Assembly: GCA_032718475.1 (NCBI GenBank)
Contig: JAUCBJ010007272.1
Location: 1 to 48,879 of the forward strand
Length of the DNA stretch: 48,879 nt
Reading direction: 5' to 3'
Source: Nemertoderma westbladi
Lineage: Eukaryota > Animalia > Xenacoelomorpha
The notes below the pieces were generated by a model. The model made no database searches. It worked only from the letters and a program-made list of their open reading frames with translations, and was not told the origin of the DNA. Each line of letters opens with the position of its first letter. The first letter of the stretch is position 1. The translations under genes were made by a program, and so were the position numbers. Positions 21,259 through 46,423 of the stretch are shown one piece after another.

Positions 21259-21260
21259 CA

Positions 21261-24086: not shown

Positions 24087-24195
24087 CTAAAATATATTAT
24101 CATATATAATTATCATTATTATTATTCGCAACATGAAAAAAATAGCTGTTATAGTTAGATAGAACAGAATGCATATAATGCATAATTTTACAATG

Positions 24196-24588: not shown

Positions 24589-25059
24589 GAAATTCTTGAT
24601 AACATCAGTGTGCCAATAAACAGGCATTTCCTTTTGAATAAACTTATTATCCATTGCATTAAACTCATTTGCTTTTAAACGCATTTAAACTCATTAAACT
24701 CAGTTGCTTAAACCATTTGAACGGAGTATGTTGGGACCTGTAGATGAGCCAAGGCATTCGATAAATACCTTCTCTACCAAAATTTCTAGGATATGGTGAT
24801 GGCAAGATAAATTATGAAGATTCAATTTCATAATTTATTAATTACTGAATCATTACACATGCTCCACTGTTTCCCCCAGTATTAACAGCAGTGGTATTAA
24901 AAGACATTGCCTGAACCTGATCTGAAACTCTCCAATCTTCTAAAGCATCAACAACAGCTGCAGAAATCAGTTCACCAGTATCAGATGATAGGTTTGGGAT
25001 AGGTCGGGGTTAGAGGAATGGGAGGTGTGGTACTATTTTATTGGAAATCTCTCTGTATG

Positions 25060-25270
25060 GATGTCGCTTACATTTCCTTTGGCAATGACATAGTTGGCAT
25101 CAAGAGACACCTTCCCCAAGTTAGATGAACAAGGTTATGGATGTAAACTTGGTGACGTCTGGCTGGGCGTCGTCTCTTATGCGGATAGCATCCTTATAAT
25201 GGTGAGGTCAGCTGCAGAAGCACAACATAACGTTGCTGTCATCACTCGAAGTCCACAAGCCATTAGCCTA
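25060..25270 (+). mobile_element. Old LINE RT relic
   Basis: GCKLGDVWLGVVSYADSILI resembles a YADD motif region. Confidence 0.45.
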
Positions 25271-26196
25271 GATGTTTTTCATTACTGGATGTACAGCTTG
25301 ACTAAACTTAAAGGGTGTGAAACACACACGAATATTATGGTACTTCAATGTGTCCGTCAATTCTCCCTTCGGGCAAGTAATGGGCATATTGTGTTGTGTA
25401 ATCATATCAGCTATAGACGCTGGTGAAAGGGGGGGGGGGGGGGGGGGGGGGGGTAGGGCATTCAGTATCAAAGGCCGGAGTATTATATATATTACAATAT
25501 TATGTATATTATATAATATTATATTTATATATATATAACAAAATATAAATTACAATTCTATGTTTTCTACAGTACTATTTTGCATATATATTTTATTGTT
25601 TATTTTATTTTATTTATTTATATTTGATTTTATTCGTTTTGTTCGTTAGTTTTACCTGATGTACTACACATATTATTATGCCATCATTTATCTTATGTGT
25701 CAATGTAAACCTTATTGACGTGCTGTTTAATGGTTCACCTAGACATATTTTACTTTAAAGATAATATAGTGTCGGCTTGACCGACTTCCTTATGTTAATA
25801 ATTAAAAAATGGTGCTAATGATCGCATACACAAAATGTGTGTTAAATTGGTTTGAAAAATCATCATTTAATAGCATCATCAAGAAATATCATAATTTAAA
25901 GGAAATGAGCAGGTTACAATGGCGGTGTTTTCTAACTAATACAAAATAATGAGTCTTTATTTCTCTTGCGGTCAATTTGCGCCACTATCTGTCAGCTTGT
26001 GTATGACGTCAGTGACTGATCTTACAACAAGTTTCCTCAATAATAAATTTATTTTCGTCATATCCTGCTTTTTTGTTTGAGTGCGCTCATCTCATCTGCT
26101 CTTTTATGACCTTTGCGATTATTGACTCATAGGTTGTACATGTACAAATTTCGAGTTGTGCCAGGGTAATTGATTTATTATCTTTTATTACTGTTC

Positions 26197-26457
26197 AAGC
26201 AAAGCAAGCAAGGCCGGCCGGCAAGCAAGGCAAACAGTCGGCCGAGGCCGGAGGCGACCCGAAGGTTCCTCTTTCGATAGCTGCTACCCGAGGGTAGGGG
26301 TGGGCGCTACTCCAATCCCAAGATTTGCTCCCAGTTATTTAACTGGTACTCGTTTTATCGACCCCAGTGGATGAAAGGCTGAGTGGACCCTGGCGGGGCT
26401 GAACCTACAACCACTAGAATGCAGGCCCGGCGCTCAACCAACTGAGCTACCCCGCCG
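26197..26457 (-). mobile_element. tRNA-derived SINE, full length
   Basis: Head GGCGGGGTAGCTCAGTTGG (A box) and GGTTCAGCCC (B-box-like); core CTCAGCCTTTCATCC...GGTCGATAAAACGAGTACC resembling a conserved SINE core; TTGC-rich tail; 10-bp TSD ATTACTGTTC (26187-26196 / 26458-26467). Confidence 0.88.
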
Positions 26458-26719
26458 ATTACTGTTCTCCATAGCTTTAATTTGGACGAAATGGGGCCAA
26501 ATTCAATAGTGTCAGTTGAATGTTCCAAAAAAAAACGTTATTACACCATATATATATATATGATATGCAACAATATATAAATATTGCCACTTTCCAATTA
26601 TTGCTAAATAGCTCCATTTTTACAACATACGTTTTGAGTTAGATATCAAACAATTAATTGATATATTTATTCCAAATAAATTAATAAATCTATTAAATTT
26701 ATTTATGTTTGCCACTAAC

Positions 26720-26780
26720 CGCTTTTATATCGAAGATTGCAACTGTCTTCTCCATCGGGTTGCTGGTGGTTACAGAGACA
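26720..26780 (-). CDS. Lectin gene exon 3 (61-nt Cys-containing linker)
   Basis: CAACAG|TGT to AGCG|GTTAGT; CLCNHQQPDGEDSCNLRYKS; phase 0 to 1, exactly bridging exons 2 and 4. Confidence 0.72.
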
Positions 26781-27173
26781 CTGTTGAATAATGTAATTTT
26801 AGATATGGCCATTAATTGAAATTGTTTGTAACTAACTATATTAAATATTATTTTATATAAATAACGGGATCTATATATATTAATATTAATTATTATAATT
26901 AATTTAATTACTATAAACACAACAACACAACAATTTGATGGTGCATCAAAATGTATAACTAAATAAAGTTTTCATATTATTTAAATTATAATACTGCAAT
27001 TACATCGGGAGTAAAAGCACCATGAGGGGTGTATATGTACATCAAAGACGTTCGAAAAATCATAGAAATAAGAGAAATTAGTTCTTATATTTGACTATAT
27101 GTTCTGTTATGGTTGGCGCAATTTCGATTCTCCCAAGTCGACTACGTCTTGTAGGGTTATTATTGTAGTGCTG

Positions 27174-27609
27174 TCCATGGTGGGCTCTAACTGCTGTGAG
27201 GACACCAAATCTCTGGATGGCACATTCACAAGAATGCTACGCCGGGTTCATTGTGTCAAGTACAATGCACACATCTCCAATCAGACACTATATAACATTG
27301 GAGGTGTCTCATTGGTTCCCCAAACTTGACACTAGAACAAAGCCGCCTCCGCTATGAAGGACATTGCTTTCGCCATGAGGACCAGCCAGTGCATTATCTT
27401 GTGCTTTGGCGGCCTCATGGAGTGAATAAGCATGGTGAACAGCCCATGACTTTCTTGAGACGCATCTTAAAGGACACATGCCTTGAAGATGCGGATGATC
27501 TAACAAATGTCATGGGTGATAGGGAGTTGTGGTGGCGCAATTTTGTCGACAAGCCGGCACAGCATTCTTAAAAATGCAGCTGCAATGCAGCATGCCGATC
27601 CTAGTAGTA
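27174..27609 (+). mobile_element. RTE family A short 3' fragment
   Basis: Family 3' end with TAG tail; probable 12-bp TSD ATTGTAG(T/G)GCTG (27162-27173 / 27610-27621). Confidence 0.87.
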
Positions 27610-27789
27610 ATTGTAGGGCTGACGTCGATAATTGGTGGCTGCCCAAGCAAGTTTCAGAAGTGATATTTCAATTTCCCAACACGTTTTCAGCTTTAGGAGC
27701 TCCTTCTTTTCCAACTTCATTTCCAGTTTCCTTTCCAATCAGATACCTAATTTACGGTTTGACATGTAAGTCTTTGACTTTTAGTTGCT

Positions 27790-29420
27790 ATTTAATTTGT
27801 ATCTTGAGGAAATCTTAATATCTTCTAAATTTCATATTCAGTATCTTTCTTGCCATGATACATACTATTGCCGAATAGGTTTCTGAGGAATATGCTTTTA
27901 TTATATTCAGACAGATAGAAGTTGCAGACTGGTCTTTATCTATTGATTGTAGTACATCAAAATGGTTTTGAACTTTTACGGTATATTCATCCCCTTTACT
28001 GCAGTATATTTCTCGGTTTCTCAAAGATATAAAAAATATACACATTATAATAATTAATTCGCTTGCTTGTCTTGAGTTTACTGACTCTCGTACTGAGGCT
28101 GATCTCTGCAGTCAAGATTATGACGTTCTAACACAGATTGGGTTGGACGTGCTGTATCGTATACTACTACTACTAGGATCGGCATGCTGCATTGCAGCTG
28201 CATTTTTAAGAATGCTGTGCCGGCGTAGCATTCTTGTGAATGTGCCACCCAGAGATTTGGTGTCATCAGCAGTTAGAGCCCAGCATGGACTTCCATAGAG
28301 GAGTACTGGAACTACTGCTGCTCTAAATAATCGGACCTTAAGTGTCCGATTAATTCTCAGTGACTTCCAAATCCTGGAAAGCCTATTCAAGGCTGCCCAT
28401 ACCTTTCCCTTACGTATTCGAAGGTCCTCACCTGACTTCCGGATCCATGATCCCAGGTAACAGAAGTCATCCACATGCTCAAGCATACCATCTTTTGAGC
28501 TTATGCTCATCCGATCAGAGACTTGCTGAGGACTTTCAAAGTTAACTGTCAAAATTTTGGTCTTTCTGGAGTTAATAAAAAGACCAACACTAGAAGCAGC
28601 ATGTTCTAATGAGCTGAGGAGCCGTTGGGCTCCCTCTAATGATTCTGAGAGTACTCCTAAGTCATCAGCAAAGTCTAGATCAGTTAGGTACTTGGCAGGA
28701 TTTCCTCGACTTCTGGAGCCAGTAGGTGGAGTTATCATCACCCCATCATCATTATGATGATCTAAGGACATGCGTAGAACATAGTCAACTACAATTATGA
28801 ACAAGAATGGTGCAAGTGTGTCTCCCTGGAGGACGCCCCATAACACTTCAAATGGTTCTGTGTCACCGTCAACAGTAGACACAAATGTTGTTGAACCATC
28901 GTATACTGATCTGATTGCTGCAATAATTTCATCAGGAATCCCATATTATGAAAGTATGCTAAAAATACGTGAGTGAGAGACTGAATCAAAGGTCTTGAAG
29001 AAGTCAACAAACATAACAGCCATTGATAACTCTTAAATTATCCTTCTAAGTGCCAAAATGGGCTCCATGGTCCCACGACCTTTACGGAACCCATTCTGAT
29101 TTCCACGAAGCAGTCTCTCAATGGGATTCCTGATGCGATTTAATAGAATTCTATTGTATAGCTTTGCAGCAATCGAGATCAATGAGATTCCCCGAAAAGA
29201 ACCATAGAGTGTTAGGTTGCCCTTCTTGGGAACTGGCACCAACTTATAGCTCAGATACTGAGGCTGATCTCTGCAGTCAAGATTATGATGTTCTAACACA
29301 GATTGGGTTGGATGTGCTGTATCGTATGCCTCACAGTTGATAATGCTGTTTCTCCACCTTTTGCTGATAATGACGTAGCCCAACTGCTCGGGTATTAAAA
29401 GGTCCACAGCTTCCAATTAC
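27790..29420 (-). mobile_element. Decayed RTE family B fragment interrupted by a family A copy
   Basis: KRWRNSIINCEAY and GACAAGCAAGCGAAT are shared with the 10090-11030 element. Boundaries approximate. Confidence 0.6.
28163..29255 (-). mobile_element. RTE family A copy with a 72-bp flanking duplication
   Basis: RT core QGD/FADD and TAG tail; direct repeats at 28091-28162 and 29256-29327 with 2 mismatches. Confidence 0.9.
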
Positions 29421-30113: not shown

Positions 30114-30438
30114 TTGTTTATAAGGACTGACAACAACACTAATTAATATTATTTTAATAAGAAAAGCTTAATATTATTTTACTAAAACTTTTAGTACTTA
30201 ATGTATGTTAATGCATTCCTAAATTAAAACATCGGTCAACATAAACTTGAATAAAAGGCGACGATATTTTCTACGAATAGACGAAACATAATAACATAAT
30301 AATAATAATACTATATAACGAACACCCACCGGCCCAAATTAAGTCCAGACATTGCATAGGGGTGTATCATAACATACTAATTTACACAGTCCTATAACAC
30401 CATATATGAATAAACATTATTAGTACTTCTTAACTTAC

Positions 30439-30625
30439 AGGTAGTTTATTGTCCAAAGATAAGCTGGTATCATCTGCGGTGTTATAATCACCAACAGCCA
30501 TGTAGTCGAATGATTCACTGCTTACAAGATCATTTGCGTCAGCGAGTTCTGCATATTGGTCATTCAACTGGCAGATTTTATTATTATCGCTTCGACTAAG
30601 ATTAATAGATCGACATCGTTTATTA
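30439..30625 (-). CDS. Lectin gene exon 2 (second half of PAN/Apple domain)
   Basis: TTTTATAG|T to CCT|GTAAGT, 187 nt, phase 2 to 0; NKRCRSINLSRSDNNKICQLND...FDY. Confidence 0.85.
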
Positions 30626-30688
30626 CTATAAAAAAAATTGTTTTAATAATAATTATACATTAATGATAATTAAATAATTAATAATTAT

Positions 30689-31853
30689 TGTAAAAGCTTT
30701 TATGGGATAACTGATACGTTTGCCTTTGCTGGCCAGTTCCCCCCCGGTCGCTAGAATACTCTAAAAGGGATCTATAGTTAAAATAGTGCAAGCTACCAGC
30801 TTATTGGCTGATGTGCTGTACGGAGGTATCTGGGCTCCGTTTAATCGGCCAACCAGCTTAGGGAGGTTGCCTCAGCCCTGCTGCCCGTGTCGGCCAATAG
30901 AATTTGAGTGGGCGTTGATTTCGACCTATCCCAGAGCTACTGAACTGAATTTCCTATCTCTATGCTCATCCTCTGTGTTGGACGGGAGCTTCGGGGAATA
31001 AGGGTAGTTGGTATCCTCGTATAGTCAGCTAGTCATATGATTCTTCATATGATTCTGTTGTTGTGTTCCCATTTTTCGCCATAACACCGGCTTTTTGGGA
31101 AGAACTCTAGTAAAACTGCTTAAATTATCGAAAGTATAACTGTTATCTAATCAGCTAATCATATTGTTTGTACTGTTATTTACCGTCAGTTTATTAATTG
31201 TATCTATTTGTTGATGAATTATTGCCCTTTGGAGAATACGGATAAATCACCCAAATTTCCCAATTTTCTTGATACACTACAGGTTAGAGAGACAGGCTAT
31301 ACATAACAATTGCGATTTATATCAATGTGGTGTGTATTGAATCTAATGTTATTTAGCAGACCCTACATGAGTCAATTGCTGCTCTCTTTATGTGTGATCA
31401 AATTTACTGACGGTCGGCAGAATAGTGTGCATGATTGTGATTGGTAACAAAGCATTTCCTAAAGAATGCGCCTTATACTTTAATCATAAGCAGTATCGTT
31501 GCGTTTAGTATAAGTCCTAGTTCTGTTTAAATAGATAGAGCGCCATGTCCTAAAGGAACTGTTAATATTTCCCGAAAGCCAATAATATCTGTCAGAAATT
31601 AATTATTAACGATCTATCGAATAATACAATAGGTTTACACTGCAACCTTACACTGCAATAATAAAATTTAAGCAGCCGAATTCAGCCTCCCGGGTGTAGA
31701 TCCATCGGGTGAATGATCGCGCATGGGCTGGCTTCGGGTAATGTTTTGTTTATTAGCATAAAATATTGTCGTATGCTAAAGGTGTTTTAATTAACTAAAA
31801 GACATATAAATTTTGGCAGGTTAAACTGCTAAAGGTCTTCAAAAGCGCGAACA
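30689..31853 (+). repeat. 5' LTR (1165 bp)
   Basis: TGTAAAAGC...GCGCGAACA; direct repeat of 44726-45889. Confidence 0.96.
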
Positions 31854-31919
31854 ATAACAGTTAACGATCTTATTGCAGTAAGCAATAAGGTTGCAAAATA
31901 CCGTAGTGACCGGTAAACC

Positions 31920-32050
31920 TGAACCGGTACTTCTGTAGGTCAGTAGGCCCAACTGCCAGAACCGGTACTGCTGTAGGTCCGTAGGTCCAACTGCCAGAAC
32001 CGGTACTTCTGTAGGTCTGTAGGCCCAACTGTCCTAACCGGTACTGCTGT
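31920..32050. repeat. About 38-bp tandem repeat (~3.5 copies) in the element leader
   Basis: GAACCGGTACT(T/G)CTGTAGGTC.GTAGG(C/T)CCAACTGCCA units. Confidence 0.85.
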
Positions 32051-34090
32051 ATAAGTACATTAGTATTATTCGAATTTGATTAGTGCATACCGGTAGGCTG
32101 TTTAAGAGATTAGGGACTGTATACCCCTTGTTTCTTTTGGAGCTTACTTATTTCTGTCGGTTTTATTTCCTAGTAAGTTAATATTGAGCTGAAGACGTGT
32201 AAGTCTGCTCAGATTGTTCAGATAATTGTAGGCTGAACTGCTGTCTGACTGTTGTTGGGTTTGGAGAGATTACGGCATGTGTAGAGTTTGTCTGATAAAG
32301 TGCCGTTAGTAAGTTGGGGCAGCCATATGCTGTAAGGTCAATCCCCTCTTAAAGAATAAGTCGTACTACCGTGTTAGAACGCATACTAACTAACTGTTTC
32401 AGAATCTGCATATACTGTAGTTTATTTAGGCTTGATCGTAGTCTGCCAGTGTTTTAGCCTGTGTTTGTTTGTGTGGTCTGTTCAGGTACCGTAATAGTTA
32501 TTACTCAGATATTTTGTAGGCTGGATTGTTGTCTAGCTATTCTTAGGCCTGAAGGGATTGCTGCGTGTGTAGAGTTGGTCTGATAAAGTGCCGTTAGTAA
32601 GTTGGGGCAGCCATATGCTGTAAGGTCAATCCCCTCTTAAAGAATAAGTCGTACTACCGTGTTAGAACGCATACTAACTAACTGTTTCAGAATCTGCATA
32701 TACTGTTGGCTTGATAGTAGTCTGCCAGCGTTTGGTTTGTATTTTGTTTGAGTATTCTGTACGGGTAGCGTAATATTTATTATTCAGAGTTTATGCGATT
32801 ATTCGCAACATTCATGTCCCCAAGTTTATTCCTACAGTAATTGTGCTTGTTATACATACCGTTATAGTTAAATTAACCCCTGTACTACACGGGCTGCTTG
32901 GCGTAGGACAAGACTGGTGACTTTGTGCTCTGGTCACTCCAGCAGATGCCGCGGTTCTTTTAACTGTTCAAGTATATTTAACTACTGATTATTTGTTATA
33001 CCGGTACTTGTACCTAATTTAGGGTTTAGCGTACAGTGCTTCCGAGAGTAATTAGTGTGTAGGCAGTATATTTGTGTTGTAAAGTGGTTGATAGGCACAT
33101 TCGCTAGCTCTATTAACTTCTAGGTAGGAACACTCCGTGATACATAACGTAGTACCTATAGCAATACGGTTATAGGTCGTCAGGCGGTGGTATTTTCCTA
33201 TCTGGACAGTGCAGTATATTTACTACTACTTATTATTTCAAATACCGTAGTACCCTGTCCGTTGTAATAAACCAGAAATCTAACCCTTTGTTAGGCTGGT
33301 TTGTAGACTTCCTGTAAAATTACCCTAAAAAATTCGTACGTAATATTTTGTTGTGTTTAATTAGAGAATTAATCTCACCCATATCGTAAGTAATTTGTAG
33401 TATTAAGTAACTTAAGTAAATTAGAATTATCAGTTTTAGTGTCTCAATAAGTAACACTTCACTGAGAGCGTACAGCTTCTGTGTAGTGACTCCCCCAGAA
33501 ATAATAACATTTATTTCAAATATTGACAAAACCCATTTTTAACGGGTATATAAATATTATAAATCAACTCAAACGATTTATAAATAGTAGGCCTGTCATA
33601 CAACAACTAGGTCTCAATATCAGTTGAACTACTGCTTAAATAACGGTAACAAAGTAAGTTAAAGTAACTAAGTAACCCTAAAATATTCAGGAATTCAATT
33701 ATTCTAAAAATAATTGACATACCATAGGCTTATTATATTTATCTCTATAAATTTGAGCTGAAATCATACCGGTACTCTGTAATTAATCTAGTCTGTAATT
33801 ATACTTATATATACTATAAGTGTAAGCTGTATGCCGGTATTCACTATAGGCCTACTATATATTTATATATATTTGTGCTAAAATTATATACCGGTACTCT
33901 GTGACAAATCTAGTCTGTAATAATACTTATATATATTATAAGCATACCGGTATTCTAATATATTGTATATATATCACGTTACACCGAGTAACGGTATCGG
34001 TAATAAATCGCTAGGCTTGCGGTCATACTGAATTACCAGACTTGCTTTAACTGAAACTATAGTAGTAGGCATTCAACTGTATAGCTAAAC

Positions 34091-37000
34091 ATGTCTGACA
34101 CTCAGCAAAACCTGTCAGACAGTCTGATCGATACAACTATCTGTGACACAGATAGGAGTGTGGAGCGATTAAGAAAGGAGTTCAGCTCCCCTCCTACTGC
34201 AAAAAAGGTCATCCCTCCAGTAGTATCAGACCCTAGGCTAATCCACCATAGGTCCATCATAGGCGCTCGGGCACAGGTCAAACGGAACCAAGAGGCAGTT
34301 GTCCCATCGCAGCAACATCTTGGTCAAGAACCTACTTCCCAGCGACCCGATAGCTCCAGTAGTTCGGATACAGTAGAGCTGACCCCCGAAAGCGGAGTGC
34401 AGATAGCTGCTACAGTCTACTCGGACCCCCTTCTTACCCTTCCTGCTGCAGTGCTAACTACTATATACATTGCGGTGGAGGAACATCAAGCCGACTGGGC
34501 GAGAAATAAGCGAGCGACCCAAAATAATTATGCGGGATACGCCAGGGAAGAATTGATGTCTATTGTCGAGTCACAATGGAACTTTCCCGGACTCGGACTC
34601 CCGTTGGATCTGTCCGAGGCTACTTGGGAAGATATACACAGGATGGGAGTGACTAAAGATACAATGGATCCAGCTGTTTGGAAGAGGTCGGCAGCAGGAT
34701 ATGTGCAGGGATTCTTCGGCTCCTTGGAGCGATTGGAAGAACAACTGTTTCGACAACCTCAAGGACCTCAAGAGCAGGAAGAGCTGCTATACCAAATACG
34801 CGAAAGAACCCTACGCATACGACTAATCCTCTCATCCTTTGAGGAAACTTCCAAAAGAAGACAGGACACGTCGCTGCAGGTTGCTGTCAAAACTTGGTTA
34901 CATCGGGTAGATCTCAAAGTACAGGAAACGGCCCAGTGGAAATCCCAGCTGGCTGAGAGATCAACCTGTGAAGAACAAACTGATGTCACCCTTTCTCAAG
35001 CGGAAAGCGAAGAGACCGCCGAGAAACCGCGAACTAGAGACGCTATCGACATTTATTTGTCCGACTATCAGCGATTCCTAGGAGACGAAGAGTTGAGGAG
35101 ACGGCTGTCTGGACTTTCCCCTAATAGTGAAGGAACCAAGCTTGTGTTGGACTCAATCGATGCCGAAATGTTAGCTGCAAACCAAGCTGAATGTGATGAA
35201 AAACTCCGCCTCACTAGAGTCCGAGAAGAACAAGTAAAGAAAGAACTGATAGAGAAAAGAAAGGTAGCAGCAGCAGCGGCGGCGGAAGCAGAAGCAGAAA
35301 GAAAAGAAGCAGAAGCCGAAAGAAAAGCGGCAGAAGCAGAAGCAGAAAGAAAAGCGGCGGAAGCCGAAAGAAAGGCAAAAGCGGCAGAAGCAGAAGCCGA
35401 AAGAAAAGCGGCAGAAGCAGAAGCAGAAGCAGAAAGAAAAGCGGCGGAAGCCGAAAGAAAGGCAACAGTGGCAGAAGCAGAACGGAGAGCGTCTGAGGAG
35501 ACTATCCAACTAGAGTTGGAAAATCTGCAAGAGACGCAAGACAGTATAAATAAACAGTTTACTGCTAATCAGATGCAGATGATGAGAAAATCTACTCCCA
35601 AGCGCCAGGGATACACATCCTCGGAGGAAGGCGATACTACCGATCCTGAAGGCGGAGGAAATAGATCTCATCTAAGTAGGCGTAGAAAAACATCTTACCG
35701 TCGCAAATTGCCTGATTTACCCCCAGCTGTTAGAAGACAGCTAGCTAGCACAGACTTGAGTAGTATAGAACCTACAGCCCAAAGTATTAAGGTCCAAAGA
35801 CTCTCTACAATAGTTGATGAGCCTGAGATAATTAGGCCTGTCGTTCCAAAAGTCACTTCTGTGTTAGAGACCCCTGTACTTCCAGAGCTTAACTCTAAAT
35901 TCCCTTTACATAGTACTACACTGCCTGTACCCGGTGGAACAGTCCAAGAGAATATCCCTGTCCAGATAGCAGAGAGAGAAATTAAAAATTTGTCTCCCGT
36001 CGTCCCGCGTCAGCCCGCTACTATGTTGGCGACTCCCGCTTCGGCGGTTGAGTGGGTGGAAGAGGGACGGCGTGGGATGAATCTTCTGCTGGGACAGATG
36101 CAGGAGACTGTCCACCAACTTAAGGGAACAGTGAGGGAAAGTAGAGCAGAGTTGCAAGAAGTGCAGCAAAGTATCGCGCTAGAACGCGACAAATTAGTCA
36201 ATATACAAAAGGGCATACCAATACCCCCTGTAACATTGTGTCAACCTGTTAGGTCTGAAGTATTACATGCGCAAGGTGTGGAGCCTACACGCATCTATAC
36301 TGCTAGTGAAGTTGAAACTCCTATAGCAAACCCTATTAAGGGTGATTATAGACCTGTTATTAATGATATTCCCTATAGACCTGATAATGATCCGAGAAAT
36401 TTATATACCGATAATTCGATATTAAATAACACGATGGCCCAAGAAAGCTTTACGCGTCAGATGGCTAGAACAGAAGACCGCCAAGCGGTCAAAGTGGGAG
36501 AGATCGTCAAATTCAATGGAGATGAGATGAAATGGTTACCTTTCAACGAATATTACAAAGATAGCATACAGAACTCTGTACTATCTAACGGAGAGAAACT
36601 TAGATTCCTCATCAAGTGCTTGGAAGGACCTCCTAAGTTAATGGCGTTAAAGTTTATTGGACATCCAGAAGGATTAAGACAAGTTTGGGATACATTAAAC
36701 ATCAGGTATGGTAACAAGGATAACATAGCTAAGTATTTGTATGCAAAATTAGTAGCCCCCCGACACTTCCTTAGTAGTGGGATTATAGAGTTTTCCGATG
36801 AAATTCAAGAGATCTGTAGACAACTGGACTGGTTAGGTAAGTCGCATGAATATCAGAGTTCCATGGTTATTGGAGCCGTAGTCTCTACTTTACCAAAGGG
36901 TGGAGTATGTACACGCTGGGACAAGAAAGTGTTGTACATGAATGAACAACAACGAAGAAGTCCTACCATGGCTGATCTCATGTCCTTCTTAGATAGTGAA

Positions 37001-38566
37001 GTAAAATTACAACTCATAAGGCAGTCCAGAGAGAAAACATCGGAAAATAAGGTAAGTGAGAAACCCGTTTCTAGGAGAAGGATAATACCAGTGTGTTATA
37101 CTGACGACGGCGAAAGCCAAGCTTCTCAAGAAGAGGACAGCGGGAAAGACACAGCAAAATCTTACTATGACAACAAGACCTATAAAGACGTAAGTAAATA
37201 CAAGTCTCGAACCAGTGACAGGAGAGAACAGGTAACAACAACTCCTCCTACGTCTCCTAAGAGAATTCACGGAAGAAAGCCCGAAGAAAGAACGAGAGTG
37301 CAGAACGTTAACCAAGTTAAGGTGAGTAACATCAAACCAAAATGTGCGCTGTGCGACGGGCCCCACCATTTGAGTGCGTGTGCTGAATTTCTAAAGAAAT
37401 CCCTTGTAGACAGACGTACAGTCCTGTGGAATAAGCGGTTATGCTATAATTGCCTCAGATCAGGACACCAACGGCGAACCTGTTACTCCGACATAAAGTG
37501 TGCAAAGTGTGGCGCGAAACATCACATCTTGTTACACAGTGAGTTCGAACGAGACAAACTGAGTCAGGTAAGTGAGCCCGAACTACATGTCCAATTCAGT
37601 GATGTAAACGACACTGATCAAGAATCTGAGATGGAAGGATTCTATACTGACGAATTCTCCGACGCCAACGAATCCTGTTATCTAATCAATACCGCAGTGT
37701 ATCGAGCACTTACTTATGAAAAGGACACCAACAATGAGTTTCCCCCAACTACTTTTGCCAAACAACCATCTTGGAAAGCTCCAACTTCCAACGTAGGAAT
37801 CAGAGAATTTCCTGTAGTGCAGGTAAGAGTTCACGGTCTTAACAAAAGTTACATAGTGAACGCCCTCCTTGACTCCGGCAGCACAGGAACATTCATCGAT
37901 CAAGAACTAGCCGAAGATATCTTTGCTGGACAACCCAAGTTCCGGACTAAATTGAATATGTCAGGAATTATGCAGGTTTGGAAATCTACCCTAACGGCAG
38001 ATTACTATGTAGGTGTGTTGTCCACCCCCCAGGATAAATTAGGAGCACAAGGTATAAGGTCGGTAAAAATGGTGGCTATAAAGAACTTCGCTACTACCCA
38101 AGCAGACCTTTATAATTGGGACGAGGATGAGAGCATCCAACATCTTAAGATACCTCGATTCCAGACAGATTATCCTGGAGTGCAAATACTCATCGGCCAA
38201 AACGCGCATGAGGCGCTCGAGACATTGGAGAAACGGCCTGCTCAACCGCAGCCACTACAAACCTATGCGGTAAGAACTAGAGTAGGTTGGAACTTCACTG
38301 GCCCTTCCCGTAGAACTCTCAAAGAGAGATTACCTCAACAACAGGTATACCAAGTAAAGGGGGAAGTGGAGAGCAGTGATGTGGACGATCCAACTGAGGG
38401 AACACCATACTCCTCAGATAATGACGATATAAACTCCAATGTAGATCAATGGAGACATTGCCTTGGGACGATTAATCCAGCCGACATCGCTTCCAGAGGA
38501 GCAACTCCTCAAGAACTGATAGATACTCCAGGCTGGTTAGGTGGATCCGACTCCTTAAGTAAATAA
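34091..38566 (+). CDS. gag-pro: BEL/Pao Gag-protease polyprotein (DUF1759-like Gag, three zinc knuckles, aspartic protease), ending in an RNase H tail relic
   Basis: KFNGDEMKWLPF...EKLRFLIKCLEG; CALCDGPHHLSAC / CYNCLRSGHQRRTC / CAKCGAKHHILLH; ALLDSGSTGTFI; AVRTRVGW; then WRHCLGTINPADIASRG. No RT motifs. AEAERKA coiled-coil repeat at about 35266-35490. Confidence 0.93.
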   Translation: MSDTQQNLSDSLIDTTICDTDRSVERLRKEFSSPPTAKKVIPPVVSDPRLIHHRSIIGARAQVKRNQEAVVPSQQHLGQEPTSQRPDSSSSSDTVELTPESGVQIAATVYSDPLLTLPAAVLTTIYIAVEEHQADWARNKRATQNNYAGYAREELMSIVESQWNFPGLGLPLDLSEATWEDIHRMGVTKDTMDPAVWKRSAAGYVQGFFGSLERLEEQLFRQPQGPQEQEELLYQIRERTLRIRLILSSFEETSKRRQDTSLQVAVKTWLHRVDLKVQETAQWKSQLAERSTCEEQTDVTLSQAESEETAEKPRTRDAIDIYLSDYQRFLGDEELRRRLSGLSPNSEGTKLVLDSIDAEMLAANQAECDEKLRLTRVREEQVKKELIEKRKVAAAAAAEAEAERKEAEAERKAAEAEAERKAAEAERKAKAAEAEAERKAAEAEAEAERKAAEAERKATVAEAERRASEETIQLELENLQETQDSINKQFTANQMQMMRKSTPKRQGYTSSEEGDTTDPEGGGNRSHLSRRRKTSYRRKLPDLPPAVRRQLASTDLSSIEPTAQSIKVQRLSTIVDEPEIIRPVVPKVTSVLETPVLPELNSKFPLHSTTLPVPGGTVQENIPVQIAEREIKNLSPVVPRQPATMLATPASAVEWVEEGRRGMNLLLGQMQETVHQLKGTVRESRAELQEVQQSIALERDKLVNIQKGIPIPPVTLCQPVRSEVLHAQGVEPTRIYTASEVETPIANPIKGDYRPVINDIPYRPDNDPRNLYTDNSILNNTMAQESFTRQMARTEDRQAVKVGEIVKFNGDEMKWLPFNEYYKDSIQNSVLSNGEKLRFLIKCLEGPPKLMALKFIGHPEGLRQVWDTLNIRYGNKDNIAKYLYAKLVAPRHFLSSGIIEFSDEIQEICRQLDWLGKSHEYQSSMVIGAVVSTLPKGGVCTRWDKKVLYMNEQQRRSPTMADLMSFLDSEVKLQLIRQSREKTSENKVSEKPVSRRRIIPVCYTDDGESQASQEEDSGKDTAKSYYDNKTYKDVSKYKSRTSDRREQVTTTPPTSPKRIHGRKPEERTRVQNVNQVKVSNIKPKCALCDGPHHLSACAEFLKKSLVDRRTVLWNKRLCYNCLRSGHQRRTCYSDIKCAKCGAKHHILLHSEFERDKLSQVSEPELHVQFSDVNDTDQESEMEGFYTDEFSDANESCYLINTAVYRALTYEKDTNNEFPPTTFAKQPSWKAPTSNVGIREFPVVQVRVHGLNKSYIVNALLDSGSTGTFIDQELAEDIFAGQPKFRTKLNMSGIMQVWKSTLTADYYVGVLSTPQDKLGAQGIRSVKMVAIKNFATTQADLYNWDEDESIQHLKIPRFQTDYPGVQILIGQNAHEALETLEKRPAQPQPLQTYAVRTRVGWNFTGPSRRTLKERLPQQQVYQVKGEVESSDVDDPTEGTPYSSDNDDINSNVDQWRHCLGTINPADIASRGATPQELIDTPGWLGGSDSLSK

Positions 38567-38680
38567 GAAGAAGAATGGCCTCCTCATCTTACCACAGCAG
38601 AAATTAGACAGGCCAAGGGAGCGGAGAAAGTAACACAACAACTCAATCGCCCAGCTAGTCGTTTATGTTTACTGGAAAGA
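38567..38680 (+). pseudogene. Pol relic: end of the RNase H region fused to the extreme C-terminus of integrase
   Basis: After the stop the same frame reads EEEWP...LNRPASRLCLLE, matching the BEL ...WP and RPxxxLxxL terminal motifs. Confidence 0.7.
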
Positions 38681-40393
38681 GACCGAAAACTGTCCGGAAA
38701 CTATGGAAGGCAAGATACTCTTCCTACGACCACTTCCCTAATCCGACAAATATCTAGGGACTCCATAACGTAATAACATATGGAGTGGGCGTGTGACTAT
38801 ATCATTTTATATTTGTTTTTATTTTATATTTATGTATGTATTATTATGTACGTTATTATAATCGTTTTTATTTAATTTTATTTAGTAAAATGTTATTTTA
38901 GAATATTTAGTAAATTAGTGCAATATATTAGTGTTTATTACGTATTTAATTACTTGTAATATATTTAGTGCGAAGGCAAGAAATAATTATTTTCTCTTTC
39001 CTTACTGTCCGTATTATATTATAAATGCGAGACTATAGTAAGATGACATGTCAGTACTTCTTAAAGTACAATAAAGCCACTACTATATTTAAGTATTATT
39101 GGTAGGCAGAGTATTAGGAATGCAAAGTTCAGATCCTCGTGTCTCGGCTAAACCAAGCTCTGGGTAGACCTTGGAAACGACTTGCCTCTTCACACTGACA
39201 TTGCTTCGTGCGATATTGCTCTTCTACCTTATAACAAATAATACATATAGTAGCGTGATGTCCCTCTAACAGTAGCGTAAATCGCAAATAAATCTGTTAA
39301 ACTTTTTGACCATCTGTAATTCTAGTCGATTAAGATATCGTGGCACCCACCGATATACTTGAAAAACAAATTCTAGAATCAGTGGTTAACATCCCCAGAC
39401 AAGTTCTGGAATAAATCGGTGCCCATCCTAAATATTAATTTAATATTTATTAAAATCTGTAAAATCCCGATCCTTTAAAATTTCTAGTCAATTAAGATAT
39501 CGCAGTATTTACCGATATTCTTAGAAAGACTATTTTATAGAATTAAGGATCCTAAGTCCCCAGATATGCTCTGGAATAAAATTTGTGTCAATTTAACATC
39601 AAATAATAAAATTCACGGGAATAAATTTAAATTCATATTCAAATGAATTTCATAAATTGTCATTTTGTGCAATTTATAACATTCCCAAAATTCCAGTAAT
39701 TAATAGATCATGGGAGCGGAGATTCATATTGAGTGTACTAGAGTGCGAGAATCTCCAACATATAGTCAATAGCCGATAAAATTTATAAAATCATGCATAA
39801 AGAGGATATTGACAATTAAAGAATTACTATTAAATAGCATCCCAGATCTGTATGCATGAGAATTACCCTAATTCTACCGCTAGTTTTCCATAATGTCACC
39901 ATGGCAACACCCACGCTAGAATTAGAAGCAAGTTAAAGGAACAATAAAAAGCTTGCCCATTGCGTAGCATAAGAGTATACATAGCGCACTATTAGTATCC
40001 AAGGATACATAGTAATAACGTGACATTCTGGAAGACACTGACTAACGGACAAATGGTATGCATGTGTGCAGTAAGTAATGATTGTATGGAATTTGTGCGT
40101 TTATAGGTGAATGTTACTACTAAAGTGTGTTTACAGTAGCTAATCGCAATTGTAAAGTAGCCCTAACTCTACCGAGATAACCTCAAGTGGATTCAAGCCT
40201 TTGGGACGGACAGTGGTGGGACTTGTGCCGGTTATCGTTGTCGTGCTGTTGCTACATGTTGGCGTAAACACCGCGACAACGGTACATCGGCGCTGAGAAA
40301 CCCACTGTCCGGGGGCAAAAGCCTAGTAGGCAGCGACGCTCGCTTGCCTAAAATATTAACTCCTATTGATATTAATAAACTCAGATAGCAGAT

Positions 40394-43300
40394 ATGACGG
40401 AATTGATAGAGGATGACCTTGGTATCAGGGAGCGATATACTCTACCTTTGCAAGCGTTTGTGGATAGCTTGATACGCGGTGAAGCCGATCCGACTATTAC
40501 GGAGGACGATGGTCGTTATATCGAACCGCCGATGTCCCAGGAACAACTTACGCGTGAATTGGACTATAGAAAATTCACCGCTCGCTATACGAATCGTAAT
40601 GGTACGTATATGGACTTCTTAACTACCGGCCATCCTACCGATTTACATGATACGGAAGATGTAGACACCGAAAGGGAAATGGTTTTATTTAAATATCATG
40701 CCCAGCGGAATCGTAATGATAAACCGAGAATAGAACACGAGAACTCTATTCGCAACCTACTCGACAGAGAAAACGTTGAAGAACCCGATAAGCGTATCAA
40801 CTTCAACGACTACTTGGAATTTTTGAGAGAAACCTATCTCAATATTGCCAGTCAACAGAACCTAGAGACTCGATATCCTCAAGGTATACATCACGATCCC
40901 ATGGTAGAACTCAAACGACTCTATTTCACCATGATGTATCTTACCGCAGATCGTCCACTGCCTGTTGTCCCGGACAGCTTTGAACAAATGGAAGAGTATT
41001 GCAAAACTGGAGAACGATCACCCGCGTTTCCTCTGCAGGACGTACGTCTTTGGTATTATTGTGACTCATGTCCTAGACCTAACCAGCAAACGGAAAGACA
41101 TAAACATCCGCGGAGACGTTGTGCTAAACACAGTTTTACGCGTTATACTTACGGGAGTTTCGAGCGAAACCTGTTCGACGTATCACCTACGATCGCCCGT
41201 CTAAAACGATCGCTAAATAAACCCATGATCAGAGTTCCGGAATACTCGGTCAGGCCTCCCCATTTCCCCGTGAGACCTCAAACTCTTGATCCTAACAGTA
41301 TCACTGATCCTCCCGAGTTATACTCACTGTTCAAAGAATTGGTGTTACCCGAGCAGTTAATCGGTGGTGTTCCAGCGGTAGGTTCGTTAGATATTCGACC
41401 ATCCTATTTAACCGGATTGGGACGCGGGCATCTAACATCGCCATTTAATCCTTACAATCGGCCAGGATTAACTCCGATACAACCTGCCACGGAAGTCGAG
41501 GAGAGTGTCATCAGAAACGCTCTAGACGCCATCCGACAGAAAATCGGAAAGGGAACCCAGGATTTTCTAGAGAAACGTAAATTACAGCAGCAGATCCAAT
41601 CGGTCAAAGAGTTAGCCTTGCCGCAGTTTGATAGAGAAATCCAAAACCTCGAAGAGGACATCGAGCTTGGACGTACGTATTCCCTACAGGAGTTTCTAGA
41701 AGAACGCTTACAGAAACAAGCGGAGGAAAATCAACTAGAGGAGAAACATACGGAAATGGATGAGAGAGAAGAAGCCGCTTTAGCCCAACCCGAAGTTCAG
41801 ATACTCATAACCGATCTCTACTCTAAAACCGTCCGTCATCCCTCGATGGTTCCGCATTTCGGAGACAAACTTTTCGCAAAGATACAACCCCAACCGGTTG
41901 ATATCAGCATAAGATCGCAAAATCTTATCGCTGACGCTCCTATGCTACAGCGTCCGCCAATCGAGGCCGCTCGAGTTGACGGTATACTCGTTGAACCTCC
42001 GGACAATCGAGCGGATCTTGTCCGTCGTATGGTACACGATGTCAACATACGTGCTAGACCTTTACAGAACTCTTTTTATGGAATTAAAGATCACCCTTAT
42101 TACGTTAATCTGACTCAATATTATATGGTAAAACCAGAAGATCCGACGCATAATTTAAAGTTTCTACCACTAATAAATCCTCTGGACATTGTCGAACTCG
42201 AACAATTACAAAAACATCTGGATCAGTTAGTAAAGGTAAACTCATTTCGAAAACCATATAACGTTTCTCGAATAGAGAAGGATACAGAACCTCCTTATAA
42301 TCTCGATGGATTTATTAAAACTCGATTAGTCCATTGGAATCTAGACGTATTATTCGAGGAGGAGAAAATACAAAGATATGGAAATGTGGAGACGTATACC
42401 ACTCGATACATGAAGTATAGTGATCTCCCTGACGCTAATCAATGCGCCACCTTGTGGCATCCGGTAGGGATGACCCTCGAGAACGCCACCAAAGAGTGGA
42501 ATGAAACTCTTAATATCATTGAGATGTATGGCGTTGTTACTTACGATAACGAAGGTAGCGTTCCAATCAGAGAATTAGGAACTACGCGCATGATACATAT
42601 ACGCGGATTAGCTGGTTCCACTCACGTGTTTACGCGAGCGTGTTCCGACGTGATCGATTATTCCTTTGAAACTCTCACCGATACGCAAAAGAATCTCCGA
42701 CATGGACAATTCGAACTCGCGCAGCGTTACGTCATTGACACCGAACGCAAACCGGCCATGGGTATCGATGGATCGATGTTACCCCAGCCCGTTCTCGAGA
42801 TGTTATTCAACGAAAGAATCATTAAAATCGGCTCAGCTGTTTACGGAGATCTCCAAAACGACTTTCGGAATATGGAAAATATCCCCTATCCTTTCGTGGA
42901 TACTCAGCTGATAGCTCCTTGGGCCGAAGGCCGAGGTTTCTTTCGCACCATGTATGCTAATGCGTCTAGCAACATTACAAAGGTGCAACGAACTTCCATC
43001 GGACATCTTGCTTTTCAGGAATACGGATGGAATTTCAAGGTCGGAAATCCCATCAACTATCAACAAGTATACGGAGACCATTATTCTCGATTATACTTTG
43101 ACGGACCGTTGACCGCACCTGGCGCCGTGTATAGCTTCATGAGTGTTCCACTCCGCCCCTCCTTAGCTATCTACACGATCTTCGAAAACACCGCACTTTC
43201 CGGTTGGCTAGCCGATGTGTGCAGTCGTACTATACGCGCCCATCCATTAATCCTTGGGACCAAACTCGCTAAGCTAGATGAACATAATAAATTCATCCGC

Positions 43301-44647
43301 TTTGAATGTTTCCGACGGTTTTTAACCCCGTTTCGCAACGTGGATAGCCAATTCAAAGACCGCGCTTTGACCAAGCTCAGCTTAAGAGACTCGGCTGCGG
43401 AGAAGTTAGATAGCGCTGGATTTGCTATTTTCAAAGACATTTGTATAATAAACATGCACTCCTCTGTTATCCAAAGACCTCGAATCCCCACAGGTTATTC
43501 GGTCGTGGAAATTCAGACAGTAGGTCCACTTGAGGAGACGGCCATGCCTACCTCAACTATACAAGGGGAAGACGAACCCGTATGTTTAGAATCTGAAGAG
43601 ATTCAGCCCCCCACGTCTCGGAGTAGCGATAGCGACTACATATTGGAATGGTATCAAGGTCCACAGTGTCTTACTGCGTATGATTATCGCTATGCCAATT
43701 ATGTTTCTCGACAACGTTGTCGGCTGTGCGCATCGAGAGACCATATTACGTCTATGGACACCAACGATCTCTGTTCCTATTTCCACGAGCAACCGTCGAT
43801 GGAAATCTATTGTGCATATTGTCGGCTTAATAATTTGCACATTTTTGCTGTCTGCCCCCAATTTATGACTCAATGCCATCATTGTCAATTAAAAGGACAC
43901 GCCAGCTTTGATTGTCCCTTTAACCATGATTTAGAGAGCGTAGATGAAATGATTGTACTACGTTATATCAGAGCTTGGGAAGCGAACGCTGATTTACATT
44001 GTGATTCACGCCATCGCTATTACCCTGGACGCGCTTACGAAGGAGTTTATGCGTTCCATCCTTATTTGTTTGCCTCCGTCGAGCAGAAATCACGCCTATC
44101 AAGTTACGAACTACTGAAGCGCGTTGGAGAATGTATTTCAACCAAATATGTACGCAAATTTCTCAGGAGCATTAATCCGAGTGACATCAATTCTTACAAC
44201 TTAATAAACTTTATCCGTCAAGATCCGGCCTATGGAGACTTATTTGTCAACTCACACCCCGAGTTACAGGAAGTATATCGACGGCCTTACGAGTATCGAG
44301 CCCGCGAACGCGAGTTGGAAAGAACCATTAAACCAAGGAAGTTTCTAACTACCTATGGTCCACCCACGGCCCTCGTTCAGACCACTCGTAAAGGACCCGT
44401 AAGAGCGGCTGTCTTGAAACGAGCTCTCAAAGCCGTTAGACCCCTCTCCCCGGACGTGGATGTCAATCAACCCGGTACTTCGACCGGCGGATATACCGAT
44501 CGTAATCCCATACCTTCTGATGCAATCATATTGCACCCTTCACCCAGGAGTTATAGCCCTCCTCGTAAAGTGGCTCGCCCCAAAGAGAAAAGGACTCTTG
44601 CTAGCTTTAAAAAACTGCGTAAACGCCGTCCGCGCAAGAAAGACTAA
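40394..44647 (+). CDS. 1417-aa accessory protein with a DEDDy-like 3'-5' exonuclease domain, Cys/His zinc knuckles and a basic C-terminus
   Basis: VVTYDNEG (D718/E720), LPQPVLEMLFNERIIKIGSAVYGD (D819), FVDTQ, PLRPSLAIYTIFE (Y927/E931); CRLCASRDH, CAYCRLNNLHIFAVC, CHHCQLKGHASFDC; KKLRKRRPRKK. The ORF is certain; the domain call is by motif recognition. Confidence 0.8.
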   Translation: MTELIEDDLGIRERYTLPLQAFVDSLIRGEADPTITEDDGRYIEPPMSQEQLTRELDYRKFTARYTNRNGTYMDFLTTGHPTDLHDTEDVDTEREMVLFKYHAQRNRNDKPRIEHENSIRNLLDRENVEEPDKRINFNDYLEFLRETYLNIASQQNLETRYPQGIHHDPMVELKRLYFTMMYLTADRPLPVVPDSFEQMEEYCKTGERSPAFPLQDVRLWYYCDSCPRPNQQTERHKHPRRRCAKHSFTRYTYGSFERNLFDVSPTIARLKRSLNKPMIRVPEYSVRPPHFPVRPQTLDPNSITDPPELYSLFKELVLPEQLIGGVPAVGSLDIRPSYLTGLGRGHLTSPFNPYNRPGLTPIQPATEVEESVIRNALDAIRQKIGKGTQDFLEKRKLQQQIQSVKELALPQFDREIQNLEEDIELGRTYSLQEFLEERLQKQAEENQLEEKHTEMDEREEAALAQPEVQILITDLYSKTVRHPSMVPHFGDKLFAKIQPQPVDISIRSQNLIADAPMLQRPPIEAARVDGILVEPPDNRADLVRRMVHDVNIRARPLQNSFYGIKDHPYYVNLTQYYMVKPEDPTHNLKFLPLINPLDIVELEQLQKHLDQLVKVNSFRKPYNVSRIEKDTEPPYNLDGFIKTRLVHWNLDVLFEEEKIQRYGNVETYTTRYMKYSDLPDANQCATLWHPVGMTLENATKEWNETLNIIEMYGVVTYDNEGSVPIRELGTTRMIHIRGLAGSTHVFTRACSDVIDYSFETLTDTQKNLRHGQFELAQRYVIDTERKPAMGIDGSMLPQPVLEMLFNERIIKIGSAVYGDLQNDFRNMENIPYPFVDTQLIAPWAEGRGFFRTMYANASSNITKVQRTSIGHLAFQEYGWNFKVGNPINYQQVYGDHYSRLYFDGPLTAPGAVYSFMSVPLRPSLAIYTIFENTALSGWLADVCSRTIRAHPLILGTKLAKLDEHNKFIRFECFRRFLTPFRNVDSQFKDRALTKLSLRDSAAEKLDSAGFAIFKDICIINMHSSVIQRPRIPTGYSVVEIQTVGPLEETAMPTSTIQGEDEPVCLESEEIQPPTSRSSDSDYILEWYQGPQCLTAYDYRYANYVSRQRCRLCASRDHITSMDTNDLCSYFHEQPSMEIYCAYCRLNNLHIFAVCPQFMTQCHHCQLKGHASFDCPFNHDLESVDEMIVLRYIRAWEANADLHCDSRHRYYPGRAYEGVYAFHPYLFASVEQKSRLSSYELLKRVGECISTKYVRKFLRSINPSDINSYNLINFIRQDPAYGDLFVNSHPELQEVYRRPYEYRARERELERTIKPRKFLTTYGPPTALVQTTRKGPVRAAVLKRALKAVRPLSPDVDVNQPGTSTGGYTDRNPIPSDAIILHPSPRSYSPPRKVARPKEKRTLASFKKLRKRRPRKKD

Positions 44648-44725
44648 CTGTTTAGAGTATTTTTATATTTTAGAAACTGTGATTTTGTATATTTTATAGA
44701 CTTAAATCCCATTTTCTGGGAGCGG

Positions 44726-45889
44726 TGTAAAAGCTTTTGTGGGATAACTGATACGTTTGCCTTTGCTGGCCAGTTCCCCCCCGGTCGCTAGAATACTCTA
44801 AAAGGGATCTATAGTTAAAATAGTGCAAGCTACCAGCTTATTGGCTGATGTGCTGTACGGAGGTATCTGGGCTCCGTTTAATCGGCCAACCAGCTTAGGG
44901 AGGTTGCCTCAGCCCTGCTGCCCGTGTCGGCCAATAGAATTTGAGTGGGCGTTGATTTCGACCTATCCCAGAGCTACTGAACTGAATTTCCTATCTCTAT
45001 GCTCATCCTCTGTGTTGGACGGGAGCTTCGGGGAATAAGGGTAGTTGGTATCCTCGTATAGTCAGCTAGTCATATGATTCTTCATATGATTCTGTTGTTG
45101 TGTTCCCATTTTTCGCCATAACACCGGCTTTTTGGGAAGAACTCTAGTAAAACTGCTTAAATTATCGAAAGTATAACTGTTATCTAATCAGCTAATCATA
45201 TTGTTTGTACTGTTATTTACCGTCAGTTATTAATTGTATCTATTTGTTGATGAATTATTGCCCTTTGGAGAATACGGATAAATCACCCAAATTTCCCAAT
45301 TTTCTTGATACACTACAGGTTAGAGAGACAGGCTATACATAACAATTGCGATTTATATCAATGTGGTGTGTATTGAATCTAATGTTATTTAGCAGACCCT
45401 ACATGAGTCAATTGCTGCTCTCTTTATGTGTGATCAAATTTACTGACGGTCGGCAGAATAGTGTGCATGATTGTGATTGGTAACAAAGCATTTCCTAAAG
45501 AATGCGCCTTATACTTTAATCATAAGCAGTATCGTTGCGTTTAGTATAAGTCCTAGTTCTGTTTAAATAGATAGAGCGCCACGTCCTAAAGGAACTGTTA
45601 ATATTTCCCGAAAGCCAATAATATCTGTCAGAAATTAATTATTAACGATCTATCGAATAATACAATAGGTTTACACTGCAACCTTACACTGCAATAATAA
45701 AATTTAAGCAGCCGAATTCAGCCTCCCGGGTGTAGATCCATCGGGTGAATGATCGCGCATGGGCTGGCTTCGGGTAATGTTTTGTTTATTAGCATAAAAT
45801 ATTGTCGTATGCTAAAGGTGTTTTAATTAACTAAAAGACATATAAATTTTGGCAGGTTAAACTGCTAAAGGTCTTCAAAAGCGCGAACA
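44726..45889 (+). repeat. 3' LTR (1164 bp)
   Basis: By eye differs from the 5' LTR by 2 substitutions and a 1-nt indel; preceded by PPT 44718-44725. Confidence 0.96.
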
Positions 45890-46423
45890 ATTATTCAATA
45901 TTAAATTAATTTTATTAAAAATAATCTTTACTAAATTTTTTAGGAAACATTAATATACGTTAGAGTAAATGTAATTCATTAATTTATTGTATTTGGAAAA
46001 TATAACAGTAACTACTATACTACACACACATAAATAAAATAGAAAAACTGATTACACTAGTACAATTATTGAATAATTATTTCATTAAACTAAATAGAGT
46101 ACTTGACTAATGTTTTAAACTAAGCAAGTTATATAAGGAATTATTTTTTTTATTGTGAGTTTCAACAACTAACAGATAGAGACACAATTAATTTGGTTGC
46201 AATGGGAAGAAGTCCAGGAGAAGGTCACAAACGGTCAGATACCTATTACATTATAGTAAGTAATAGTAACATTTTTTAAGATTTACATAAGTTTGACATA
46301 GTAACAGCTTTTGTCCGGCTGTGAACGATTTAACAAATTTTTTATTAGTAAGCTAACACACTAAAGTAAATATTTCAAAATTGTAACGAAATTGCCACCA
46401 GGTACAGTTAGTGCTGAACTCAC

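Follow-up and report, generated by a model that had tools for sequence, protein, structure and literature searches.

The contig JAUCBJ010007272.1 of Nemertoderma westbladi (48,879 nt; this whole stretch is called the window below) harbours at positions 30689-45889 a 15.2-kb BEL/Pao-derived element with long terminal repeats (LTRs), two long open reading frames (ORFs) and two pol relics. We regard it as quite probable that this element represents a semi-autonomous BEL/Pao-derived family, and not a broken single copy, which probably moves on enzymes borrowed from rarer undeleted relatives. A preliminary description of the window had proposed a helper-dependent lineage borrowing reverse transcriptase (RT) and integrase in trans. 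The evidence supports this proposal since copies share the junctions at which pol was lost and since the family, despite having neither enzyme, still makes TG..CA insertions with target duplication. An LTR family which lacks RT and integrase and makes such insertions must obtain both in trans. The following features of the pol region carry the argument.

34091-38566, plus strand: ORF1, Gag-protease, ending at a stop codon private to this copy
38431-38432, plus strand: deletion junction 1, loss of RT and RNase H, about 510 amino acids (aa) net relative to the protein P0046
38432-38631, plus strand: pol relic 1, terminal part of the RNase H region plus linker
38631-38636, plus strand: deletion junction 2, loss of the integrase, about 500 aa
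38636-38773, plus strand: pol relic 2, last motif of the integrase region with a tail in frame

From stop to stop ORF1 extends over 34085-38566 (1493 aa) and encodes, in the order known from BEL/Pao, a Gag with a DUF1759 domain (E = 7e-12, about 36512-36898), three zinc knuckles (37343-37534) and an aspartic protease which is recognised by a weak match and by a DSG motif at 37865. Its relatives are distant BEL/Pao polyproteins (39 matches among 5540 candidates in a first search, 26 among 3451 in a second), with DUF1759 or Peptidase_A17 present in 38 of the 39 matches of the first search and local identities of 20-53% over three protein searches. The N-terminal half of Gag contains, at 35218-35503, a low-complexity Ala/Glu/Arg/Lys repeat of which length variants exist among copies. 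RT and integrase are absent, as the preliminary description had stated: the motif scan reveals neither in any of the six frames of the element, and the RT YxDD is covered by none of the 77 tblastn matches which 35 full-length BEL/Pao polyproteins (the fetched proteins above 1500 aa with a YxDD motif) produce on the window. Pfam likewise detects no RT, RNase H (Peptidase_A17) or integrase domain. The two relics, which had also been described, are both present in the frame of ORF1 and in BEL/Pao order. Because this order is kept but the pol domains are absent, the element is to be classified, as far as its sequence tells, as BEL/Pao-derived and not as an autonomous member of BEL/Pao.

Comparison with relatives places junction 1 within a few nucleotides. 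In P0046 the match to the protease end stops at residue 645 and relic 1 resumes at residue 1204, an interval to which 43 codons correspond in the window, and the alignment of relic 1 starts at 38432-38435 in nine of 12 relatives (best 12 of 35). The distance from relic 1 to the final integrase-region motif amounts to about 500 residues in this protein and to about 20 codons here; the alignments of relic 2 are weak (scores 19-43), and junction 2 is not fixed by proteins alone.

Public sequencing runs place both junctions in other copies of the element as well. Seven of the ten rows listed, stemming from four studies, contain part of the stretch, no RNA run being listed among them; one run may be the window's own source, but three studies agree on the junctions. 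Here and below, variant places, indels, loose ends and pieces refer to the best 40 of 2977, 12 of 271, 19 of 185 and 25 of 6802, respectively. The junction region examined, 38230-38830, is matched by 5379 contigs in run X1, 1325 in X3, 93 in X5 and one in X7, the latter of depth 3 and uninformative. If at least 20 nucleotides of unlike sequence are taken as running off, the share of contigs doing so is 0 in X1, 0.01 in X3 and 0.12 in X5, and depth across the region is unbroken in 29 of 29 bins in all three runs. Junction 1 is bridged by record 19 of X5 with 15 differences in 141 nt (89% identity), junction 2 by records 22 (20 in 157, 87%) and 23 (15 in 131, 89%) of the same run. In addition, contigs listed for variant places reach 32 nucleotides to each side of 38431 in X1 and X3, and 31-35 nucleotides to each side of 38633-38637 in X3. 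In run X4, which derives from organism B, the internal region is covered at low depth and the flank is not.

Since diverged copies, 87-89% alike and present in independent runs, bridge both junctions, the loss of pol is older than the diversification of the family. The junctions are thus shared among copies as anticipated, and the finding which would have spoken against a pol-less lineage, namely deletions private to this copy or created by the assembly, is contradicted by the bridging copies and by the near absence of run-off. A private deletion or an assembly collapse, by which the element would be no more than one decayed copy in a normal autonomous BEL/Pao family, might be suspected as internally deleted copies are common and as this copy carries a private stop; yet with contigs from independent studies crossing both junctions and a run-off of 0-1% in the deep runs we consider such an origin very improbable. 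Pol-bearing copies less than 80% alike would escape the matching, but these would then constitute a separate family. The preliminary description had, moreover, read the altered motifs of the relics as a sign that pol was lost before the insertion. Altered they are, but partly in a copy-specific manner, positions 38463 and 38464 reading otherwise at 63% and 37% of the X1 depth, and for this reason motif decay is weak evidence.

A minority of contigs leaves the reference precisely at the junctions. Among the loose ends listed, seven contigs of X1 end at 38431 (median 61 nucleotides), five of X3 and three of X5 at 38631 (the latter with a median of 193 and one of them at depth 839), while at 38636 two contigs of X1 leave and two of X3 enter (median 88). 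These contigs are candidate undeleted relatives or helpers. A further contig of about 557 nt, present at low depth in X1 and X3, matches solely 38441-38589 at 82% identity. Undeleted relatives would be expected to produce such a pattern. No partner with matching LTR ends was obtained from the protein searches or from the scans of metagenome and viral contigs, which contained no relative either; the loose ends sit at the junctions. As an alternative to a close helper, the enzymes might come from a BEL/Pao family which is only distantly related or has died out; contigs departing at the junctions would then represent subfamilies with a different filler. This possibility, to which we assign a minor but appreciable probability, agrees with the protein searches, which yielded no close pol-bearing protein, and with the situation in wheat, where Sabrina and its partner share almost no sequence according to the available part of PMC9744471. 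It is harder to reconcile with loose ends which lie within a few bases of junction 1, mapped independently from proteins, and on both sides of junction 2. The RT-bearing ORFs which the window contains outside the element were rejected as helpers: they have no sequence in common with the element and are unmatched by BEL/Pao polyproteins.

The ends of the element are defined by the following features.

30684-30688, plus strand: left target-site duplication ATTAT
30689-31853, plus strand: 5' LTR, 1165 nt, TG..CA, AATAAA at 31660
44718-44725, plus strand: short purine-rich tract just ahead of the 3' LTR
44726-45889, plus strand: 3' LTR, 1164 nt
45890-45894, plus strand: right target-site duplication ATTAT

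The roughly three differences in 1165 positions reported earlier for the LTR pair are resolved by alignment into two substitutions and one 1-nt indel (three differing alignment positions, divergence 0.17%), and the 5-bp duplication ATTAT is, as had been described, perfect at both element ends. TG..CA LTRs together with a short target duplication are found in BEL/Pao elements, for which five base pairs are the typical length. The insertion had been called very recent. It is young, as the LTR divergence testifies, but the private stop and 17 listed ORF places at which this copy is unlike nearly all others already set it apart; seven of these 17 are third-position changes, a spread as for neutral changes. 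Hence, this copy is young and its decay has already begun. The claim of two uninterrupted long ORFs needs a similar qualification. The element contains only two long ORFs and both are open, but the stop which ends ORF1, 38564-38566, falls between the two relics and is private to this copy, since nearly all depth in four runs shows another letter in this codon.

Contigs matching 30200-44725 number 117,529 in X1, 30,301 in X3, 781 in X4 and 1226 in X5. One 197-nt contig of X3 reaches a depth of 14,039, about 260 times the 53 of the flank bin, and a conservative estimate of the ratio in X1 is 66-184. As depth is not equivalent to copy number, abundance is stated as an order: the family appears to be very abundant, with hundreds of copies or more.

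Variation among these copies is suggestive of constraint on both ORFs and not on the relics. Ten of the 12 indels listed comprise 1 nt and are all non-coding, and the two located in ORF1 both comprise 3 nt. Listed places of intermediate frequency fall on third codon positions in nine of 14 cases in ORF1 (p = 0.017; two of the 14 are intermediate in one run only) and in four of six in ORF2 (p = 0.10), while the share in the relic region is 11 of 30. Conversely, the family could be a pure parasite whose helper also supplies Gag, with ORFs which are passengers and open only because deletions and burst are recent. That the third-position excess among the listed places of ORF2 is not significant alone, that one run has a form skipping 40757-43565 of ORF2 and that the ExoIII motif of this ORF is doubtful would fit such passengers. 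Copies diverged by up to 10-20%, however, show listed indels which spare the ORFs or keep the frame, and the listed intermediate variants of ORF1 favour third positions whereas those of the relic region do not; we therefore deem a pure parasite unlikely. Long open ORFs under apparent constraint could also indicate a Gag or exonuclease gene domesticated by the host, an explanation with next to no probability in view of the near-identical LTRs, the fresh target duplication, the hundreds of diverged copies or more and the multiple insertion sites implied by the depth ratios.

In addition to Gag and protease, the semi-autonomous family which we propose encodes a second large protein.

40394-44647, plus strand: ORF2, 1417 aa, N-terminal half without assignment, DEDDy-like exonuclease, zinc knuckles

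The open frame extends over 40379-44647 (1422 aa, 4.25 kb). Acids are present at ExoI (D-x-E at 42542) and ExoII (D at 42845), where ORF2 aligns with the proteins P0066 and P0067, and zinc knuckles resembling those of retroviral nucleocapsid lie at about 43811-43915. The part 42380-43300 is grouped in the Atlas with DNA_pol_A_exo1 clusters (score 0.93, 170 features in common, ten of the ten best matches in one family or clan). A profile-free scan of 1.84 billion representatives retrieved two weak relatives, ENA proteins in which both the exonuclease-like and the zinc-knuckle part of ORF2 recur (E = 9e-7 and 3e-4). A word search with ORF2 found none among 7993 candidates. PDB sequence searches produced no exonuclease, the alignment profile matching solely retroviral nucleocapsid zinc knuckles, and AlphaFold models offer no usable fold (mean predicted local distance difference test values of 29.6 and 29.1). 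Judged from its motifs, ORF2 combines a DEDDy-exonuclease-like part with zinc knuckles, the third catalytic motif being uncertain. The ENA proteins P0066 and P0067-P0071, whose contigs reach lengths of up to 9-11 kb, exhibit an exonuclease and zinc-knuckle architecture and have a C-terminal motif in common with ORF2; together with it they apparently form an accessory protein family without a name. A bacterial RNase D locus from the contig scans (L001) was discarded. An exonuclease ORF is reportedly present in the Cer elements of C. elegans (BEL group) as well, a report for which a literature look-up retrieved no paper. A contig of X5 (depth 2918, 112 nucleotides on its short side) skips 2809 nt of ORF2 between 40756 and 43566, including the exonuclease-like domain, and reflects either a shortened variant or alternative splicing.

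Expression and priming of the element involve features of the LTR, the leader and the region ahead of ORF2.

31137-31146, plus strand: candidate self-primer of 10 nt, complementary to the 10 nt which directly follow the LTR
31282-31284, plus strand: likely splice donor CAG|GT inside the LTR, from joints in X5
31854-31863, plus strand: primer-binding-site position, no TGG-type tRNA site, judged on the TGG-type start alone
31865-31893, plus strand: predicted 12-bp leader hairpin, arms also complementary to LTR 31641-31661 by the poly(A) signal
31918-32706, plus strand: 5' leader repeats, 38-nt tandem units and a 193-nt duplication with 288-nt spacing
40175-40176, plus strand: likely splice acceptor AG preceded by the branch-like word CTAAC, from joints in X5 and sequence context

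Two joints, 31274 to 40175 and 31282 to 40194, connect the LTR with the region just ahead of ORF2 and are seen in run X5 only. On this basis it is fairly likely that ORF2 is made from an env-like spliced message joining 31282 to about 40177, our confidence being limited by the short sides of the joints and by the 'DNA?' label of the run.

As to priming, the element agrees in sequence with the Tf1 type in that a TGG-type site is missing and the primer position is complementary to a stretch of the LTR. A complement as long occurs in 13 of 5000 resampled LTRs, or in 34 of 5000 if offsets of 0-3 nt are allowed, the comparison having been made post hoc. In RNA folds the 10-nt duplex is seen if the start is set at 31137, a position which was chosen and is not independent; with a start at 31186 the leader pairs differently. 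At 31186 lies the word TCAGT, which we take to be initiator-like and which would place the RNA start downstream of 31137-31146. The geometry suits the Tf1 type only if transcription starts at 31137, while the word at 31186 argues otherwise, and Tf1-like self-priming by the element RNA is therefore a doubtful proposition. The two 10-nt leader segments within 31870-31895 pair either with LTR 31641-31661 at the poly(A) signal or with each other in a local hairpin, possibly a switch which masks polyadenylation in the 5' LTR. A sigma-70 promoter scan is not applicable to this host.

Several points weigh against the interpretation of the element as one member of a semi-autonomous family equipped with an exonuclease made from a spliced message. 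ORF1 of this copy is cut short near its end by a private stop. At the position of the ExoIII Y-x3-D motif this copy lacks a clear acid; a Y-x3-E which could take its place lies 14 residues on, and Pfam detects no exonuclease domain in ORF2. The splice joints have short sides (22-23 nucleotides) and come from one run which is labelled 'DNA?' and also covers the left flank. Selection tallies derive from small, non-random subsets, with ORF2 alone not significant (p 0.10). Finally, a close pol-bearing protein was not found, as three protein searches gave only distant BEL/Pao polyproteins, and the loose ends could be subfamilies with another filler.

The closest counterpart of the proposed system is RLG_Sabrina_SA of wheat and barley, described with RLG_WHAM in PMC9744471. 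In the parts of this source available, the wheat family is a population of 5397 copies which as a whole lacks RT and integrase while its Gag-protease ORF is intact; it is probably mobilised by RLG_Wilma, with which it shares almost no sequence. Like this high-copy, pol-less family, for which 'semi-autonomous' cross-mobilisation has been described, the family considered here lacks RT and integrase at the family level, as the shared junctions and a run-off of 0-1% in X1 and X3 and of 12% in X5 document, and its Gag-protease ORF is intact across copies with respect to the places listed, with in-frame indels and a third-position excess. RLG_Sabrina_SA differs in being a plant Gypsy element of 8.1-8.3 kb with a tRNA-Asp primer site (PMC9744471), whereas the element of N. 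westbladi is BEL/Pao-derived, measures 15.2 kb and has two in-frame pol relics, a second ORF of 4.25 kb and no TGG-type site. By analogy, the family would work like RLG_Sabrina_SA without being a member of it, and the type of system has already been described in plants. A non-autonomous partner which retains Gag, as here, is also known from the pair RLG_Quinta/RLG_Cereba (PMC11302176) and from TR-GAG (PMC8704663), whose transposition has been observed. As far as these sources describe them, RLG_Quinta and TR-GAG are plant elements with Gag only and have neither a protease nor an accessory enzyme gene; the single Gag-only ORF of TR-GAG stands in contrast to the protease and ORF2 found here.

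ORF2 finds its parallel in the bdelloid rotifer LTR elements Juno and Vesta, which contain a DEDDy, RNase D-like exonuclease ORF3 at the env position (PMC5408684; DEDDy ORF3s of rotifer LTR elements appear also in PMC6338049 and PMC5718144). According to the parts consulted of PMC5408684, these elements have kept pol and do not belong to BEL/Pao, while ORF2, 1417 aa in length, contains zinc knuckles and begins with a long N-terminal part without assignment. With regard to priming, a post-LTR sequence complementary to an LTR stretch and not to a tRNA end is shared with Tf1/Sushi, Tj1, Tcn1 and TAR, all of them Gypsy or Copia lineages in the passages available (PMC4600332, PMC6317226), whereas here a predicted 10-nt duplex occurs in a BEL/Pao-derived element. 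The literature search found no description of self-priming in BEL/Pao, and neither this nor a pol-less Gag-protease BEL family is mentioned in the accessible text of PMC5443660, PMC3601003, PMC2774666, PMC13524379 and PMC3286476. It likewise retrieved no semi-autonomous Gag-protease family which belongs to BEL/Pao or carries an exonuclease as accessory gene, Repbase-type catalogues, subscription papers and supplements lying outside its scope. The main text of PMC3118150, which names BEL/Pao clades by phylogeny of protease, RT and integrase, does not contain the word 'exonuclease'.

In the mechanism which we envisage, full-length family RNA would be packaged in particles mixing the family's own Gag with Gag-Pol of the helper, whose RT and integrase would make the new copy, own Gag and protease being supplied by the family. 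ORF2 would be translated from a spliced message (LTR donor 31282, acceptor 40176; one run), as is env in retroviruses, and may act as an accessory RNA-binding factor, e.g. by processing RNA ends or by weakening silencing through small RNAs. The least certain step would be Tf1-like self-priming, which would need RNase H of the helper. A complete division of labour, in which the pol-less family gives capsid, protease and a spliced anti-silencing exonuclease/zinc-knuckle protein, a rare sister gives RT and integrase, and both self-prime, is a speculative scenario with rather low odds of being correct in full.

Outside the element, the window contains several unrelated features. An uninterrupted ORF of 469 aa with an F-box and a right-handed beta-helix (5576-6985) is a host gene or a retrocopy. 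It is flanked, together with an array of about 37 tandem 48-bp units which show higher-order similarity (about 1900-3900), by a duplicated segment of about 690 nt (393-1076 and 7435-8120, 96% alike). Another retroelement, with RVT_1 and DUF6451, is represented in 15389-29250 by several truncated copies which are 88-96% alike and lie in either orientation; it is probably a long interspersed nuclear element and is unrelated to the LTR element. A degenerate simple repeat of the TATACT type runs from 48370 up to the window end at 48879.

For BEL/Pao elements the finding means that a pol-less family would be missed by RT-based surveys despite its apparently high abundance. As a scale for the latter, one 197-nt variant reaches a depth ratio near 260, a measure not equal to copy number, compared to the 397 copies of the largest BEL/Pao family reported in the main text of PMC3118150. 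The family may thereby serve as a natural experiment on two questions: what makes an element retain Gag in cis but obtain pol from elsewhere, and which role DEDDy exonucleases play in retroelements.

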